Positions 26,847-59,905 are shown, counted from the first letter of the whole stretch. The stretch is 63,508 nucleotides of DNA, filler included, from Folioceros fuciformis (GCA_049999805.1; 3 parts of 3 records of this genome joined end to end with filler, not necessarily neighbours in it); one strand, 5' to 3'. The notes: a model not told the origin generated them from the letters alone. Made by a program: numbers and translations.

Positions 26847-27680
26847 TTACTTCACTCGTCCTTTCTTCATCACTGTAGAGCAGTCGGTGCAGTACCATTT
26901 GCCTCTTGGCCGGGCAGTGATGCCGACACAGTCGAACTGGAACCACTCTGTCGGGCACTGATGTCCAAGTGCAACAGTGTGATGATTAAAAGGCATTGAG
27001 AAAGAGGTGGCAGGGAAGAACTGGAGTGGTGTCAGCAACTTAGCAAGGGAGGGAAGAATGTGCACCTCTGAATTGTCGCAAGCTATCATTTCNNNNNNNN
27101 NNNNNNNNNNNNNNNNNNNNNNNNNNNNNNNNNNNNNNNNNNNNNNNNNNNNNNNNNNNNNNNNNNNNNNNNNNNNNNNNNNNNNNNNNNNNTGTAGAGC
27201 AGTCGGTGCAGTACCATTTGCCTCTTGGCCGGGCAGTGAACCACTCTATCGGGCACTGATGTCCAAGTGCAGCAGTGTGATGAGTAAAAGGCATTGAGAA
27301 AGAGGTGGAAGGGAAGAACTGGAGTGGTTTCAGCAAATTAGCTAGGGAGGGAAGAATGTGCACCTCTGAATTGTCGCAAGCTATCATTTCACCAAACGAG
27401 ACCTGGTTGCAGTAGCAGTACGTTGGCTCGTTTGGATGCACTGGTAGATCCATCTCCACTGGTGGGGCAGCAGGAACAGTGTACTGCCCTCTGCTGCAGA
27501 GAGCAAATTAACCAGGATGCGACATGCTGAAAGAGAACTGCAGGAGGGAATGGACGCTTTGAAACAAAGTGGTGGTCTTGAGTGCGTACTTTTTCCTCCC
27601 TGATTCCTCTTGAATGAGAATCTCTGACCCTGCTGCAATTCCTTGGCCCCCCATCTGAACTTGCTCTACGCAAGAAGATG
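26847..27680 (-). pseudogene. ING1: ING-family PHD finger 3' exons, two diverged tandem copies around an N gap
   Basis: MEMDLPVHPNEPTYCYCNQVSFGEMIACDNSE|CPIEWF-TARPRGKWYCTDC (21-bp deletion) and a second copy CPTEWFQFDCVGITARPRGKWYCTDC (His replaced by Gln). Confidence 0.8.
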
Positions 27681-27719: not shown

Positions 27720-27819
27720 NNNNNNNNNNNNNNNNNNNNNNNNNNNNNNNNNNNNNNNNNNNNTTAATTAATTAANNNNNNNNNNNNNNNNNNNNNNNNN
27801 NNNNNNNNNNNNNNNNNNN
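27720..27819. other. Assembly gap with artificial TTAATTAATTAA linker (scaffold join)
   Basis: The 12-mer at 27764-27775 is embedded in a 100-bp N run and has stops in all six frames. Confidence 0.95.
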
Positions 27820-29440: not shown

Positions 29441-30427
29441 GTGACAAATGACACCGGCTCCCTCCTTTGCACACCACAATGCACCACCCTACTTCCCCNN
29501 NNNNNNNNNNNNNNNNNNNNNNNNNNNNNNNNNNNNNNNNNNNNNNNNNNNNNNNNNNNNNNNNNNNNNNNNNNNNNNNNNNNNNNNNNNNNNNNNNNCC
29601 CCTGCATCAGCTAGTCCTCTAGACTATCCCAAGGGGACCACGCTCCCGTACCATGCTACCAAGATGGACATTGATTCGGCCACCTCCTCCCTCCTGCAAG
29701 GGGACTTGATAGAGATTCCCTGCAGGGATGGCCCCAGGCTCGCCGGTTAGTGCCAAACACCGGCACCCTGTGATCTGTTTTGCTGTCGCCGGCACCGGTT
29801 CTGCTGTTTCTCATGCAGCACATTTGTACCATAATGTTATTGAAGCGGCTGCAAAGAAAGCCGCCAGGTCTCTCCAACATCTTCCTTCCATCCTGCCTTA
29901 CCTTGTCCCCTCCAGGCTTTGGAGCATAGGCTAAGTCGGCTACTTTGGCACATTACTGGACGCAATCTGACGCAGAAAGGTAAAGGTAACAACACAGCGC
30001 CAAGATCTAGGTCCTCCCCAAGAGGATTGATCGGGGTAGAACGGCCTCCAAATCCCCAGTTGCCACACCTGAAGAGTGTCTTGGAGATTCGTCAGCATCG
30101 TATGTCCCACAACACAACGGGAAGAGGGGTGACTGTGTACACACGTCTGGTTCCTTCGCACCCGGGCCCTTCCTTGCGGGAAAGGTACAGCTATGATCGA
30201 AGTATGTATACATACAAACATTGTGATGGCCGTTGGCCTACTTATCGCTGTGCCCAGTTCACGAATGGTTTCGTTCGAAGCTGTTCTTCCAATTACAGCT
30301 CCTCTTTCCGCAGCCCTAACTCATTCGACGGGCTGATCTCCGTACGGTGCTCTGTGCGGGATCGCGGTCGGCCTTGCTATACTCTCCAGGCTGAACTAGG
30401 GACGAGGTCTCTATTGACACGTTTCAG

Positions 30428-35534: not shown

Positions 35535-35642
35535 TATGCATCTTATTATGCATCCTATGCATCTTATTATGCATCCTATGCATCTNNNNNNNNNNCATCT
35601 TATTATGCATCCTATGCATCTTATTATGCATCCTATGCATCT
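35535..35642. repeat. 21-bp tandem repeat with N gap
   Basis: TATGCATCTTATTATGCATCC units. Confidence 0.85.
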
Positions 35643-36754
35643 CTCTGCTCTGCACCTTTCCAATACTCAAATAAGGCATTCCTTTTGAGTACAGCCATAT
35701 TGCGCATCCTCCACTCACCAATACCTTCCCACATACCATAAGGTTGACACTCATGAAGCGGGAAAGGGTCTTCATTGCATTGTTGAGGTTCTAACTCCCG
35801 AATCTCAATACAAAAATTGTGAAGTGCACAACAAGCTATGACAACATGTGGGGCATACTTCAAACGAACATTAAGGTTGTTTAGTACAGGCTATTTATTT
35901 TTCAGCAATGCAAATGCATTCTCCACTTTCACTCTTCCTCTAACCCTAGAACAATTGAATAATTTTTTAGAACGATCCTCCCCTGGTGCATGAAAGGGCT
36001 TCATTCGAAAACGCATTCATGGATATGCACTATCCCCTAAAATATATGAAGCTATTTCAACATCTTGGATCTACACAAAAGGTTCTGCTAAAATGACACT
36101 AGCCTTCATCTTTTCCCAACAATTTGAGCATCATGAACCCCACTAGTATGAGAACTACAAACATCAATGAATTTTTTATCGATATCACATATGCATATGC
36201 CTTGTAATACGATAGAATGAATATCATGACCACCAATATGCAACTGGGTTGTCTACTTGCTTGGGCTGTGCATGAAGCTTGATGTGTGAACCATCTATAG
36301 CTCCAATTATATTAGAAAGGCATGTGAGCTGCAAGAACTTATAACATGTTTTGTGCCTAACAGTCGTTTTCCATGAAGCCCGTTTGGTGCACATTTAAAT
36401 TTACACCATCCTAGTCACCTAGTCACATATCCACATTTAAATCTTTTTTTCAAAAATCACTTATATTGACTTGTGGTGGACATAATCGATCTGCACACAT
36501 TTGCTTCAAGCCCACAACCAAGTGGTACATAAATCCTTCAAACTATGAAACTTTCTAGAAAAAATGAATCTTACTGTTGGTGCGCTGGTCTACTGGCGCA
36601 CCAAAGAGTATGTTTGGAGGACAGGAAACTGGCTATCTGCATCCCATGAATTTAAAAAGTTTAATAGTCAAATTTGTTTATACTCATAATGTACCATCCA
36701 CTTTAACTACTCTCAAAATCACATCTAAAACAAAACATGAACAACTTGGTTGGC

Positions 36755-37930
36755 CTAGGAATCGACAACTACATCTACGTCTTCGAGGCACTGGCCCTCT
36801 ATGTCTTTGAAGTTGTCTCCCTCCACATCTAGGACAGAGAAATGCGGGTCGTCCATAGTCTGAGGCGGAATCGTTCCATTCTCATCCCATATCGTCATCG
36901 CATATAGGTCTTCCGCTATTCTGTCATCCGATTGAGAAAAAATCTCTCCTTTTTTTCCCAACAAACTGAATACCTGCATCCGACGATCCACGCTACCGTC
37001 CGCGCAAACTTCTTTGGCCCAAACTTTGTAGGCCCGTGCGAGAAGTGTTCTGTGCTGATCTCCACATTAGCATCTGGCAAAGAGCCTATGCCATTCACTC
37101 GCTGCATAATATAAGTGGTGCATCTTATATCAATATCCACTGCAATAACATGCCTTCCTCTTTGAATCGCAGACTATAGAAATGACCCAAATTCTGCGCA
37201 AGCATCCACTACCAAGTCTCCTTCAGCGGAAAACATATTTACCAACATACCTATTAATCTAAGGGGCTTTTGATATGGTGAGACGACTACAGAATCTGCC
37301 GAGTGGAACGGATGTTTCTTCACCACAGCACCATGCCTTATAACTCTCAGAAGAAGAAATCCTTGATTCGCGAATAATGCAGCTTTGATGTCCTGAGCTT
37401 TCAAAATGAACTGCACTTCCAACAGTTAAATACTCGACAGTCTCAACCGCGCCTGCATTGGGAGGTATGTTGGTTTTCTCCCACACTAAGGTCTGAATGG
37501 TTCCCTTCTTGCACCATGGCCAAAGTGCTTCCCTAGCCTGTGTAGTGAGATCCACACCACGCATAAGGGCCACCCTATAAACATTACTGTTGGTGCATTC
37601 TGAAAACCCTCGGATCATGTCTTCAAGCTCTTCGCTTGTCAGCTGCCTGTCGAATTCATGTCATTGCAATGCACGAGGCAAATCAGCGAATAACAAAGTG
37701 TAAGGTCGGTTAACCAGGAATGCTTTCATCTCCAGGATGTTTCGATGGATTACTTAATACTTAGTCTTATGGTTGCTGCTTGGGACTCTGAACTCCGATA
37801 ATCCTGCATCCGTATCTGCATCAGCGAGTTTCTTCTTTTCTTCTTCCATGCGCTTTCAGTTTCTTGCTGAATAAACATAATCTTGAAAAGGTTTCGGCAA
37901 TGCTTCTAGGTCCTTGATGTTTGCGGGTTT
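36755..37930 (-). pseudogene. Beta-class N4-cytosine/N6-adenine DNA methyltransferase remnant
   Basis: VIHRNILEM..PYTLLFADLPR (motif IV position); IQTLVWEKTN; ETVEYLTVG; PYQKPLRLIGMLVNMFSAEGDLVVDACAEFGSFL*SAIQRGRHVIAVDID (motifs X-I-II); stops and frameshifts. Confidence 0.8.
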
Positions 37931-38120
37931 CTGTCAAAAAGCATTTCGTTCAGAGCAATCACACCACAGGCAGAATCATAAATCAAGAACTACGTCACTC
38001 CATCCTACGTAAGGGAAAAATCACTTCTAATGACTAGAGTGCGCCAGTAGACCGGCGCACACCCACCATTAGTGCGTATTTCTTCTTATTCTAATTCAAA
38101 GTTCCATGCGTTTTTTGTAG

Positions 38121-39150
38121 AGGGCTTCGAATCTGACTTGAAGATACATTGACATAGATTGAAATTAGAGCATGAGAAGAGTATCAAACATCGGGTCAAA
38201 TGTTATGGCGACCTCGGGAAGTACATTGGGATATCAGTGGATGGAATGGATCAACAAAAGACTCAGCTGCCCCATTTCGTTCGAGTACCAAAAGATTTGG
38301 CGGATGTTGGCCTCCTAGATGTGCATGTGGTAGGGTGTATGATATACAACAAGACTATGACACCGAAGCTCTTCATCGAGTTTGGGAATATTCGAAATGA
38401 TGCAAACCTAACAATATCAATTATTCAGCGCATGATACACAAGTACGACGGCCTGCTACCTGGAGTTCTTTACTTGTAGCTAGACAACACTACACGAGAG
38501 AACAAAAACAAGTTGTTTTTTTCTTATTTGAATATGTTAGTGGAAAAGCGGGTTTTCGTGAAGATAAAAGTGGGGTTCTTGTTAGTGGGCCATGCGCACA
38601 ACCAGGTAGATCAGATGTTTTCCAGGTTTTCAACGGCACTCAGTCGGAAGAAAGCTTTGACTTTACCAAAACTTATTACAGTCGGGCAGAACGCATATAT
38701 TCATGAGGTGAAAGAGATGCTGGACTTTAGAAAGTTTGTGTGGGCTATACTGTATGGGAATAGGGTATCAGAATGTTGCAACGGTTCATTAGTTGCATAA
38801 TATATCTTTTCAACACGAGTTCAAGATCACGAAGGAGACCCGCGGAGATCGTGGATCTGTTACAGTTATGAGAGGGAAACAGTATTCTACTTATCAATAC
38901 TGGTCGCCTGATGACGGTATATAATTTCTCAAACTAGTTCCGGATGGGGTTATGAAAGCCGCTCCACTGATGCATTTGCAGGTGAGGAGTAAGAAACAGA
39001 AGACTATTACTGACAATGTGCTAGGATATAACCTGTTGCAGATTTGATCAAGAGTGGAGTGCAAATTACGGTAGCACTTAGATGTGGGCGAGGACATCTG
39101 GTGGGATTCATTTTGGGCAGAGCAAGAGGCCATCGTTCAAATAATAAATT
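38121..39150 (+). pseudogene. DDE/DDD transposase remnant (Sola-like signature)
   Basis: ISVDGMDQQKTQLPHF..NDANLTISII..LYL*LDNTTRENKNK..GFLLVGHAHNQVDQMFSRFS; lies inside the TIR element. Confidence 0.75.
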
Positions 39151-39627
39151 CGGGTGTGGAGCAAGACCTCTTGTGACCATGGCAATGGTATAATCGCGAT
39201 GTGGCAGAGCTGTTGAATACACCGTTACACGTGCCAGATGCAGTGGTGGTGGAAAACCACGGATACGAGAAGTTCCTAGAAGAGACATGTATGGACACAC
39301 TTTCTATCGGAAACACTTTTATTTTAGCGTATGGATTTGAGTTGACTCGTCAAAAACAACTGCATGCTCGCACTTGAAATGTTATTAGAAAGAACTTGTA
39401 TGTGCTTAAGCGAGATCAGGAAAATCCTCCAGATGTAATCGAAGACCAACTTGCAGACACTTGGACTATACTGGTTAAGTACTTTCCTGTATACCTCACT
39501 TCATATATATGAACACTGTTTTGCAAAGAGCTGTGGTTGGCTATTCATGAGTGCATCACTCGGTTTGCCAGTGCCATGAATGCCTCTTCTAGTAGTTCTC
39601 TGGTCAGCCGACGCAAATCTTGAGGGG

Positions 39628-39881
39628 GTGCGCAAATAGAGCGGCGCACTCAGCCTATGTGTGCGCCAGCCTATCGGCGCACCATTATGAATGGGTGTGT
39701 TGCACTTCCCCCAGACCCTATTTGGGTGTTCACCAGCTGATTAGTGCACTTCCTCAAGGAGTGCACCGGTCTACCGGCACACTGAAGCAATGAGTGCGTT
39801 GGTAGATCGGCGCACTGAAGCAATGAGTGCGCTGGTAGACCGGCGCACTCATTACGATTGTGCGCTGGCATACCAGCACAC
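39628..39881. repeat. Array of 22-bp palindromes (consensus GTGCGCCGGT-CT/AG-ACCGGCGCAC), ~33-bp period
   Basis: Copies at 39628, 39661, 39728 (degenerate), 39761, 39794, 39827, 39860; isolated copies at 36580 and 38039. Confidence 0.88.
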
Positions 39882-40699
39882 GTATGAGTAAATGGTTGAT
39901 ATTGAAAAAACCCCTCACATTTTCCAATTTTTAGTAATGCCGATTTCGGAAATTATCATCCCATCTAGCTACAGCCGATAGCGTCAAACCAACCGTGGAA
40001 CTGGATAGTACCAAAGAATTTTACTGCTGGCAACCCGCAATTTCGCCTAGTTTCTTCGTAAACATGATGAATACGAAGTGCATTGTGACCGTTGTTCAGT
40101 ATATTTCGGGGTCTTCCACACCAAATAGCATGAATCATGGATTTGTGCCACGAAAAACAACGGAGAAAATCATCCAAAGCCTGATTTGTCGAAATACGAC
40201 TGTTAGGCGCAAAACTTGTTTTATGTGTAGTTTGCTCCAATTCCATCCTTGAAGGGCAGTGCACCAACCTAGAAAACAACTTATTTTGATTACTTAATAC
40301 CTCTATAACCATCTTGATGTACTAAGCCACAGTCGAAGCTCTTACCCCATACATATTTGCAACAATGCTAAGGGCCAACCCCCTAGTAAGACAATGTAGA
40401 ACCATAGCAACTGCATGATGGTGTTCCAGTGGTTCTCTAATGGCTGGCCTAACCTAATAACATAAGATATAATCTCGCTAGCTTAGCCATACTGCTATAT
40501 AAGCATGTGGATAGGGTGTGGTCTAGCTTGTGGTCATGTTTCTTATGCAGGATATCCTCTAGGTTGTGGGCGTGTTCCTTGTGCAGATGGTCACTCACTA
40601 TGATGGAGTGTGTTCTTTCATGACATAAGTCTCCTCATGATAGAGTGTGGGTTAGTGTCTTTTGGTGTTGAGTTTAAAGGATTATTTTTTTTGGTATTT

Positions 40700-41123
40700 T
40701 TAACGTGGTTCAATATACCTTGTTGGTTATGGAGGTTTTAAGCAATCATGGGAAGTTGTTTTCCAAATTTATTTCTTGGCCTTCTAAAGTTTGCCAACAG
40801 GATATATCAGCAAGATTTATGCAAGTCACAGGTTTACTCAATATGGTTGGAGCTGTTGATGGGGTCACATATTAAACTAGCTCCACAACTAAATAAACAA
40901 GACAATCCTATGGCTTATTGGTGTCGCTGTCATATTTATTCTGTTGTTCTGCAAGGAATTTGTGATGCTGACAAGTTATACCTAGATGTTTCTTGCACAC
41001 ATCCTGGTGGAGTACATGACGCAACTATTTTGAGGGAGAGCAGTATATGGCGAAGGATGGTTTAAGGTCAAATTTTAATAGATCCATCCTTGGAGGTTTC
41101 TGGGTCAACAATCTCTCCTTATA
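40700..41123 (+). pseudogene. Second Harbinger transposase fragment
   Basis: VMEVLSNHGKLFSKFISWP..MVGAVDG(frameshift)SHIKL..YSVVLQGICDADKLYLDVSCTHPGGVHDATILRESSIW. Confidence 0.88.
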
Positions 41124-42530
41124 AATAGGGGTACCTCCAGGAGGGTAGTTGGAGTAGGAAGGAGAGTAGATAGCGAGCCTGGGGTTTGCACCACCGGCGT
41201 TGGCAAGCCAGGAGGGGGCACTTCAGGGGCAGGGACAGCCGCAGGAATCACATGTGCCGGCAGCACCGTAGGCCTCCTCCAGTAGAGGATATTCCAAAAG
41301 ATCACCAGCACCAGGGTATGGAGGGCTTATGGTGTGAGAGGGAAGAGCTCCCACTGGCACTGGGCTGCCATAGAAAGGAGATTCATCGAAGACCACATCT
41401 CTCGCCACAATGATCTTACGGGCTGCAAGATCATAAAGGCGATAAGCCTTCGATTCTATACTGTAGCCTACCAACACACAGGTGAGGGCCTTGGAATTGA
41501 GTTTGTGGCGCAAATCCTTGGGATTGTGTGCGTAGGCGTAGCAACCAAAGGTTCGTAGATGAGAGATAGAAGGCTTACGACCCGTCCAAGCCTCCTCTGG
41601 AGTGATGTTGGGGACAGCACTGGTTAGTACACGATTGTGCAAGTAGGCTGCTGTGGAGATGGCCTCCGCCCAAAGGGTATTGGGAAGGCCGGCTACCTTA
41701 AGCATTGTATGAGCGGCCTCCACAAGCGTGCGATTGAGGCGTTCAGTGACCCCATTTTGCTCAGGTGTATACGATACAGTAAGTTGTCTCTGAATATGAC
41801 CTTGAGCAATAGTCCTGGGATGCATGATTGCAATACTCTGTGCCATTGTCAATGCAAAGGAGGTGAATCTTTTGCCCATGTTGTGTTTCTACGTGGGTGC
41901 AATAGGACTTAAGAGCATCCAGGACATCACTCTTGTGGCGTAGAAAATAGACAATAACATGCCTAGTGTAGTCATCAATGAAGGTGAGAAGCCAGGTCTT
42001 GCCACCTGTAGATTGAGTTTGGAAAGGACCGCAAAGATCACTATGTATGAGCTCTAACACCTTGGTGGCCCTATGTGCTCTAGTTTTGGGAAACGGGCAG
42101 CGTTGATGCTTGCCATGCACGCAGCCTTCACAAAAACTAGGAGCATCACGAGAATTGACAGTGAGTCCAATAAGTGCCTGCTTTCCAAGCATGTCTTGCA
42201 GTTTGCTAGAACTCACATGGCCTAACCTTTGGTGCCACAAGTCAAGAGAGGTGAGGGGATTACTGACTATGACTTTTAATGTTGCAGGGGTGAAGCCCAA
42301 GTTCGAAGGGGAAGAACCGCCTGGAGCACCGCTAAGCACATAGAAGTCACCTTGTTTCTCACCTGTAAGAGCCAAATCACCTCGTGGATCTTGTATGGTG
42401 AAGTTAGTTCTATGCAACTGTAAATTGTAACCAGCATTTGTGATACGACCTACGGAGAGTAAATTTCGCTTCAACCCGGGAACATGCAGGACATCTATAA
42501 TAAGCCTCTCGGATCCATCATGGAAAGCAA
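41124..42530 (-). mobile_element. Ty1/copia internal fragment (GAG-pre-integrase + integrase), no LTRs seen
   Basis: VLHVPGLKRNLLSV; LWHQRLGH..CEGC; LELIHSDLCGP; FIDDYTR; YTPEQNGVTERLNRTL; RDVVFDE; frameshift near 41800. Confidence 0.92.
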
Positions 42531-59805: not shown

Positions 59806-59905
59806 NNNNNNNNNNNNNNNNNNNNNNNNNNNNNNNNNNNNNNNNNNNNTTAATTAATTAANNNNNNNNNNNNNNNNNNNNNNNNNNNNNNNNNNNNNNN
59901 NNNNN
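59806..59905. other. Assembly gap with TTAATTAATTAA linker
   Basis: 12-mer at 59850-59861 within Ns. Confidence 0.95.

Follow-up and report, generated by a model that had tools for sequence, protein, structure and literature searches.

A stretch of 63,508 nucleotides from Folioceros fuciformis (GCA_049999805.1; three parts of three records of this genome, joined end to end with filler), hereafter “the window,” contains a transposon bounded by terminal inverted repeats (TIRs) that carries, besides its transposase, a gene resembling prokaryote-type DNA amino-methyltransferases. Our preferred explanation, to which we give a probability of roughly 0.7, is that the element, now dead, represents one of the many copies of a Sola-like transposon family that has a transposase of Pfam family DUF7869 and a methyltransferase-like accessory gene, and that it inserted in a Harbinger-type gene. 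The ends of the element, its two genes, the homology along the whole methyltransferase domain, the abundance of copies of each part, and the pairing of the two genes in a second organism are direct observations.

The boundaries are listed in Table 1. The two TIR arms are identical at 23/25 positions (mismatch at 2/25), and the corresponding pattern had exactly two matches in the 63.5-kb window and none across 100 shuffles. If the element and one TTAT are removed in silico, an open minus-strand host frame is obtained (..SRMELEQTTHKFLQLTCLSNIIGAIDGSHIKLHAQPKQVDNPVAYWW), as a first-pass annotation of this DNA, made from the sequence alone, had claimed. Because the restored frame resembles a neighboring paralogous open reading frame (ORF; 40742-41065, +) that matches Pfam DDE_Tnp_4 (E 6e-7), the host gene is a decayed Harbinger-type transposase gene and the insertion is exact; the interrupted pieces themselves gave no match in a Pfam scan. 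In addition, contigs from the same organism that represent a diverged paralog of the host gene run directly from 36314 to 40221, with no element in between. Outside 36343-40220, the window contained no second copy of the element, TIR, transposase, or methyltransferase.

The accessory gene runs divergently to the transposase, ends at a natural stop (36755-36757), and would encode a protein of ~400 amino acids. It shows the permuted order of the beta class on the minus strand, with DLPR (motif IV) upstream of the G-loop (motif I), and DLPR, VWEK, YQKP, DACAEFGS, and GRHVIAVDID were all located where the first-pass annotation had put them. The gene is broken by in-frame stops at 37934, 37856, 37754, 37661, and 37174 and by at least two frameshifts (~37399 and ~37020). 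This copy has Glu in place of the first Gly in the motif I loop (ACAEFGS ... AVDID), where relatives have CSGSGS/T ... AVDVD; counting the Gly of the other copies, the GxG loop of motif I is preserved, together with the acidic end of strand 2.

For homology searches we read the C-terminal half through its stops, with X at each (P0001), and treated the N-terminal half separately (P0002). A phmmer search with P0001 against 1.84 billion representative proteins returned 76 relatives at E≤1e-3, 6 of them at E≤1e-10, the best being P0003 (1.6e-16), while the best match in PDB was TTHA0409 (E 7.8e-4). By tblastn on the window, the N-half (37933/37762-37466) was found with P0003 (E 3e-14) and P0004 (1.6e-14), and the C-half with the same two proteins at 1e-20 and 8e-21. 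Please note that word-based protein searches, with the natural 133-amino-acid ORF against longer proteins and with the N-half against proteins of similar lengths, found nothing; they were insufficient, and a full HMMER scan was needed to detect the relatives. Matches of the 133-amino-acid ORF in the ESM Atlas (scores ≤0.81, unrelated clusters) were discarded.

All 20 relatives scanned lie above the Pfam cut-off for N6_N4_Mtase (27.1-251.7 bits), and those with names come from Ginkgo biloba, the liverwort Riccia sorocarpa, the fern Adiantum nelumboides (several paralogs), and Chara braunii. The window gene aligns with its relatives collinearly over ~330 residues, from LPKPFQDYV through the tetrad, VWEK, YQKP, and the G-loop to an LPDxxxE tail. 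These searches and the motif order bear out the identification as a divergent beta-class N6_N4 methyltransferase-like gene. A profile of 12 family members matched CcrM along its full domain (residues 15-267, E 7.5e-22), collinearly and with D-l-P-y on DPPY, followed by MboIIA (5.9e-16) and a DpnA type (5.9e-15). Against the bdelloid N4CMT (8s9m) the same profile matched at motif I only (profile positions 230-296, E 1.5e-10). The broken window gene was represented in structural comparison by a full-length relative, P0009, whose AlphaFold2 (AF2) model (predicted local distance difference test, pLDDT, 74.9; predicted template modeling score, pTM, 0.77) retrieved CcrM first in Foldseek (1.6e-13), then RsrI (4.3e-12), BceJIV, HpyAVI, and PvuII (3.6e-10), with N4CMT at rank 32. 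Judged by its profile, the family is closer to CcrM-type N6-adenine enzymes than to bdelloid N4CMT, and a close relationship to the latter is not supported.

The catalytic tetrad deserves particular attention. The window reads FADLPRAL, at a place where the first-pass annotation expected DPPY or SPPY, and the three nearest full-length relatives (P0003, P0004, and P0009; 35-49% identical in the alignments) carry LDLPRGL or VDLPRGL. Elsewhere the family has D-[AILV]-P-[YH], such as DAPY in Adiantum, DIPH in Ginkgo, DIPY, and DLPY. Among the 55 related metagenome loci described below, the tetrad could be located in 37: 21 with D[IV]PY, 14 with DIPH, and one each with DIPR and DPPY. In a quick maximum-likelihood tree the window gene groups with the DLPR proteins (Shimodaira-Hasegawa-like approximate likelihood ratio test, SH-aLRT, 91), and this group is sister to a D-x-P-Y/H clade to which the transposase-linked loci belong (support for the whole family, 96). 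Because the nearest relatives carry DLPR and the window gene groups with them, DLPR is on this comparison a selected character of the clade and no damage, and the conservation of its Arg points to a function in the active site that selection has favored. Throughout a 12-sequence alignment the tetrad keeps its Asp and its second Pro, and motif I, WxK, and YQKP are conserved as in active enzymes.

Two further features of the relatives were noted. The DIPR locus (L024:4294) belongs to the DIPH group and is a second, apparently independent case of Arg at the tetrad. Many related genes (L001-L011, L016-L024, and others) are interrupted just past the GxG of motif I and continue in a separate ORF, a pattern suggestive of a common intron position; no such break occurs in the window gene or in L012-L015.

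The plus-strand gene matches DUF7869 in two consecutive ORFs (38153-38479, E 6e-7; 38480-38800, E 8.7e-29), in keeping with the DDE-type transposase initially proposed. An intact relative is available in the metagenome locus L041, whose open 672-amino-acid transposase ORF matches DUF7869 at E 8.9e-50. The window transposase is 50% identical to it (tblastn, E 4e-65) and collinear with its residues 152-347 (50% identity), 367-432, and 603-665. It is decayed as well, with stops at 38477, 38922, 39072, 39174, and 39375 and one frameshift, so that the early description of the copy as decayed holds for both genes. At least 154 relatives of this transposase exist, more than 40 of the 120 listed being Riccia paralogs, and others come from Adiantum, Chara, the hydrozoan Clytia, sea urchins, and oysters; such a host range is compatible with Sola and proves nothing. 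A literature search found no paper mentioning DUF7869. The combination looked for in Sola, TIRs plus a 4-bp duplication, is present here (25-bp TIRs, TTAT on both sides); Bao et al. in 2009 reportedly found that Sola transposons generate 4-bp target-site duplications.

To look for other copies in the same organism, three DNA runs of one sample (X1, X2, and X3) were matched, as contigs, at ≥80% likeness to 36100-40460. The runs yielded 1020, 901, and 728 contigs, covering 30/30 bins in X1 and X2. Summed contig depth was ~180-840 in every bin inside the element vs ~30 in both flanks, with the drop at the TIRs. The listed contigs over the methyltransferase region include diverged ones, such as those at 36952-37266 (54 differences) and 37577-37912 (56). 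In the methyltransferase frame, nearly all other copies have Gln at the stop 37754-37756 and Trp at 37934-37936; they likewise have Gln at 39072, Trp at 39174-39176, and Arg at 39375 in the transposase. They also read Gly for the G-loop Glu (37193 T>C), and the extra base at 37399 is missing from six contigs. A fourth run, X4 (guessed to be RNA), gave two contigs in the flanks only and is uninformative on expression.

Run X3 differs from the others in a way that is worth recording. Over 36100-40460 it has a strong excess of C>T and G>A changes (143 and 183 places vs 13-72 for other changes), and at many sites all X3 contigs have T or A with no variant in X1 and X2. The pattern resembles that expected of a library made from the same sample after bisulfite or enzymatic conversion, in which case the run might serve to map 5-methylcytosine (5mC) over the element.

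A metagenome scan with a five-protein alignment of the methyltransferase family gave 55 loci. In four of these (L041, L014, L015, and L012), the methyltransferase gene is accompanied by a DUF7869 transposase on the opposite strand, tail to tail; the four transposases are 64-83% identical to one another, and the methyltransferases, with ADIPYGF or ADVPYGF, fall in the sister clade. Because the whole element, including its methyltransferase part, is covered by many diverged contigs, and because related methyltransferases adjoin DUF7869 transposases in 4/55 loci, the sequences point firmly to a many-copy family to which the methyltransferase belongs. This agrees with the first-pass view that it is no one-off capture.

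The element also contains a 22-bp palindrome (10-nucleotide arms, 2-nucleotide center) at eight sites, all inside its ends, with 0.04 matches expected in the window. The two solitary copies are 95% complementary to each other (pair I6). Related loci have comparable arrays: L013, L014, L015, L019, and L041 have 12, 6, 8, 5, and 3 copies of GAGCGAGAC-NN-GTCTCGCTC, and L001, L010, and L026 have an array of their own, ATTCGATAC-NNN-GTATCGAAT. Arrayed palindromes of 20-22 bp thus accompany the methyltransferase gene in three lineages. Some same-organism contigs jump between palindromes (38060 to 39825/6, in 3+3 X1 contigs; 36601 to 39826; 38062 to 36580), touching palindrome positions 36601, 38060, 39783, and 39825. 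They could be deletion or otherwise rearranged derivatives, or assembly artifacts; as proof of deletion derivatives these joints were dropped, as their sides are <30 letters and repeat artifacts are possible.

An N-terminal extension is present in the longer relatives (Ginkgo P0007, P0028, L001-L016, and others). Its model is of moderate quality (pLDDT 68.7), and the first ten Foldseek rows were ParB/Noc chains, with Spo0J too (best E 3.6e-5). Pfam HTH_ParB matched 1/7 N-domains, below the cut-off, and a profile of the N-domain found no ParB match in PDB. A ParB-like fold in the longer relatives is therefore supported by the fold search only. The window gene lacks this domain, as do P0003, P0004, and P0009, which begin shortly before the tetrad.

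Table 1. Features of the transposon and of the host gene that it interrupts (coordinates are those of the window)
Feature	Coordinates	Strand	Basis or remark
TIR transposon, decayed copy	36343-40220 (3878 bp)		Between TTAT duplications
Left target-site duplication, TTAT	36339-36342	.	Read in sequence; host frame restored on removal
Left TIR, 25 bp	36343-36367	+	Pattern search, inverted pair I2
Right TIR, 25 bp	40196-40220	-	Pattern search
Right target-site duplication, TTAT	40221-40224	.	Directly outside right TIR
Decayed beta-class N6_N4 methyltransferase-like accessory gene	~37950-36755 (36755-37950)	-	Pfam, phmmer, tblastn
DLPR at DPPY catalytic-tetrad position	37673-37684	-	Aligned with P0003, P0004, P0009; profile vs CcrM
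VWEK motif	37475-37486	-	
YQKP motif	37264-37275	-	
S-adenosylmethionine (SAM)-binding motif I / G-loop, GDLVVDACAEFGS	37183-37221	-	Includes DACAEFGS at 37183-37206
GRHVIAVDID	37129-37158	-	
Decayed DUF7869 DDE transposase	38153-39398	+	Pfam E 8.7e-29; tblastn with L041 transposase
22-bp palindrome	36580-36601	.	Left of methyltransferase gene
22-bp palindrome	38039-38060	.	In ~200-bp spacer between the divergent genes
Six-copy palindrome array, mostly 33 bp apart	39628-39881	.	Before right arm; Tandem Repeats Finder period 33, 2.9 copies
Interrupted host Harbinger-type transposase gene, downstream part, itself decayed	35633-36338	-	ORFs and restored frame
Interrupted host Harbinger-type gene, upstream part	40225-40453	-	ORFs and restored frame

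In the explanation that we prefer, the family has two divergent genes, one for the transposase and one for a beta-class N6_N4 amino-methyltransferase-like accessory protein. The latter belongs to a eukaryotic clade (Chara, liverwort, fern, and Ginkgo) in which many members appear to have a ParB-like N-domain. With motif I preserved along with the acidic end of strand 2, the protein is predicted to bind SAM. It may act on the element's own DNA, with the 22-bp palindrome arrays as its likely address, and it might either write N6-methyladenine (6mA) or N4-methylcytosine (4mC) on the element or serve as a SAM-dependent binding regulator; its action could then tune transposition or host silencing. 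Within this explanation, we put real methyl transfer by the DLPR clade at somewhat below even odds, and regard a non-catalytic binder as a tentative option with a little less in its favor. The most ambitious version is rather unlikely in our judgment: here the DLPR protein would be an active enzyme with a new tetrad, its Arg stacking on the flipped base, and would be recruited to the palindrome arrays to write 6mA/4mC on the transposon.

Several points weigh against the preferred explanation. The first ~150 residues of the L041 transposase have no counterpart in the window, so the family may be non-autonomous. The element is probably Sola-like, a placement drawn solely from the 4-bp duplication and published analogy. 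Contig depth is unable to rank the parts of the element, the contigs yielded neither an intact nor a full-length second copy, and none of them spans the element, the longest listed pieces having ~400 bases; joint carriage of TIRs, methyltransferase, and transposase by this organism's other copies is thus not shown directly. In the metagenomes, 51/55 loci have no transposase on the contig, some contigs being 7-9.5 kb long, and the genes are convergent in the four paired loci vs divergent in the window. (Inversion of the segment flanked by the palindromes at 36580 and 38039 was considered as the source of the divergent order and dropped, as it would yield a tandem, not a convergent, arrangement.)

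Other points concern the accessory gene itself. The first-pass annotation looked to Pfam N6_N4_Mtase (PF01555) for its repaired translation; the C-half does match (P0001, E 2.2e-5), but with 24.9 bits under a cut-off of 26.7, and the N-half alone (P0002) matched no Pfam family and no PDB chain. Five of the ParB-like N-domains found no match anywhere in the element (tblastn, E≤1). The DLPR of the window, P0003, P0004, and P0009 departs from the canonical tetrad (D/N/S)-P-P-(Y/F/W), which makes any enzyme activity hypothetical. Because the family tetrad, whether D-[AILV]-P-[YH] or DLPR, departs from DPPY, the “4mC/6mA writer” of the first-pass annotation should be treated as a hypothesis and not as a reading of the gene. 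Overall, what that annotation observed has been confirmed, and its interpretation is partly supported.

The strongest competing explanation is that the DLPR clade consists of pseudo-enzymes, which would have kept the fold and the SAM pocket, lost methyl transfer through the change from an aromatic residue to Arg, and persisted only as DNA- or SAM-binding regulators. In amino-methyltransferases it is the tetrad's aromatic residue that stacks on the flipped base, and METTL14, which has EPPL, acts as an inactive partner. DLPR occupies the aligned DPPY position in the window gene and in 3/3 of its nearest full-length relatives, the first Pro is likewise substituted in the family (a single DPPY among 37 loci), and the DIRS1 domain, in the portion of PMC4738411 available to us, provides a precedent for a dead methyltransferase in transposons. 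Such a loss sits poorly, however, with the invariant Asp and second Pro, with motif I, WxK, and YQKP conserved as in active enzymes, and with sister clades that retain Tyr or His; the conserved Arg, too, suggests a selected role and could stack on the base through a cation-pi contact. We regard loss of catalysis as a genuine possibility that nevertheless falls short of probable.

It is also conceivable that the gene is a passenger, taken from the host or another mobile element by one transposon family and without a role there. Transposons are known to capture host genes, most of the related loci (51/55) have no transposase nearby, and the contig of L026 carries an apparent short-chain dehydrogenase ORF (judged by eye). 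Against a mere passenger stand the recurrence of the gene with DUF7869 in another organism, where the gene order differs and the gene falls in the sister clade, and the palindrome arrays that accompany it in three lineages; a similar pairing is described for a Sola1 element in the accessible text of PMC12477816. The four listed variable sites in the methyltransferase frame of the other copies are all synonymous, a weak sign given that 40/1083 differences were viewed. We consider the passenger explanation quite unlikely. The idea that non-coding transposon DNA merely happens to match methyltransferase motifs could appeal to the sub-threshold Pfam score of the window fragment and to the N-half without Pfam or PDB match, but it is refuted by the phmmer result (E 1.6e-16 against 1.84 billion proteins), the collinear alignment of ~330 residues, and the independent tblastn matches of both halves (E 1e-14 to 1e-20), and we give it practically no weight. 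What best accounts for the data is still a dead copy of a many-copy transposon family with its own methyltransferase-like gene.

Some features of the surrounding sequence can be listed briefly. A second decayed Harbinger-type remnant lies at 40678-41065 (+), ~450 bp from the interrupted copy and in opposite orientation. At 41223-41888 (-) there is an open frame of 221 amino acids that by eye resembles the integrase portion of a copia-type long terminal repeat retrotransposon. The eight N runs in the window (396 bases in total) are assembly gaps, among them 1323-1332, 27093-27192, 27720-27819, 29499-29598, 35586-35595, and 59806-59905; one N run falls within a short tandem repeat, ~750 bp to the left of the element. 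The observed/expected ratio of CpG is 0.77 in the element (36343-40220) vs 0.59 in the whole window.

Why does this matter? Until now, transposons that encode a DNA amino-methyltransferase of their own have received only brief mention, confined to brown, red, and green algae and unaccompanied by functional tests. The present finding puts such a module in a plant-type genome, on a compact many-copy element, and in a clade that ranges from Chara to Ginkgo, and the uncharacterized family DUF7869 gains a concrete setting, as the transposase of an element with TIRs and a 4-bp duplication. In bacteria, Dam methylation couples IS10 and Tn5 transposition to replication. If the most ambitious version above were true, a streptophyte DNA transposon would have a private epigenetic mark, coupling its transposition to replication or shielding it from 5mC-based silencing, and the 4mC/6mA writers of land-plant hosts could descend from such transposon genes. 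It can now be tested whether the conserved DLPR tetrad supports methylation, whether the palindrome arrays are the protein's address, and whether non-5mC marks of plants come from transposon genes.

How, then, does the element compare with known systems? The family shares its fold and motif order with CcrM, M.MboIIA, M1.HpyAVI/DpnA-type enzymes, M.BceJIV, and M.RsrI. It differs from bacterial beta-class N6-adenine enzymes in its tetrad (D-x-P-Y/H/R vs DPPY) and in that its genes are eukaryotic, some with introns, and lie in a transposon instead of a restriction-modification system or a cell-cycle regulon. Cytosine-5 methyltransferases are carried by retrotransposons. A mobile element with a methyltransferase-like domain of its own and substituted catalytic residues is also represented by DIRS1, whose domain was judged inactive from such substitutions (Iyer et al. 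2016, PMC4738411, as far as the available portion goes); that portion lists no such land-plant clade. Both kinds of retrotransposon case involve other methyltransferase classes and RNA-mediated elements. The bdelloid N4CMT (PDB 8s9m/n/o; Rodriguez et al. 2022, PMC8885841) and Marchantia DN4MT1 (bioRxiv 10.1101/2021.02.12.428880) likewise bring a prokaryotic-type beta-class domain into a eukaryote, but in the available parts of these sources they are host genes, not transposon genes. The chromodomain found at the C-terminus of N4CMT was in none of the 20 relatives scanned.

The closest parallels come from algae, and they show that the first-pass annotation overrated the novelty of the arrangement. 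According to the accessible text of PMC12477816 (Genome Biol 2025), which also cites green and red algal cases of such accessory genes, the 21.5-kb Ectocarpus element Sola1-1_Ec32 carries a gene that combines a ParB-like domain with an N4C/N6A methyltransferase and lies on the other strand from its transposase. By that description, the two elements have in common a prokaryote-type amino-methyltransferase gene opposite the transposase of a cut-and-paste transposon; in addition, the longer relatives of the window gene have the ParB-like N-domain, and the 4-bp duplication fits Sola. The Ectocarpus protein has 1104 amino acids with ParB, whereas the present element is 3.9 kb, from another lineage, with a ParB-less protein of ~400 amino acids and DLPR. 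This comparison is by description and not by sequence. In the red alga Bostrychia, as the available part of bioRxiv 10.1101/2025.02.11.637652 has it, Plavaka elements encode PAG2 (N6A methylase plus SET) and PAG3 (ParB plus 2-oxoglutarate, 2OG, oxygenase), with tandem inverted-repeat arrays beside the accessory genes that its authors propose as self-binding sites. Transposon-borne methylase/ParB modules with repeat arrays are thus shared, as the window and related loci carry palindrome arrays. Again by description, the Bostrychia elements differ in superfamily (Plavaka) and in having methylase and ParB on separate proteins with other fused domains. Our literature search found no land-plant report of transposon-borne N6_N4_Mtase or ParB-like genes, nor of Sola with 6mA/4mC. 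On the basis of these partial texts, transposon-borne ParB-like and N4C/N6A methyltransferase genes are already known from Ectocarpus and from red and green algae; new here are the plant lineage, the ParB-less gene, the conserved DLPR tetrad, and the palindrome arrays.

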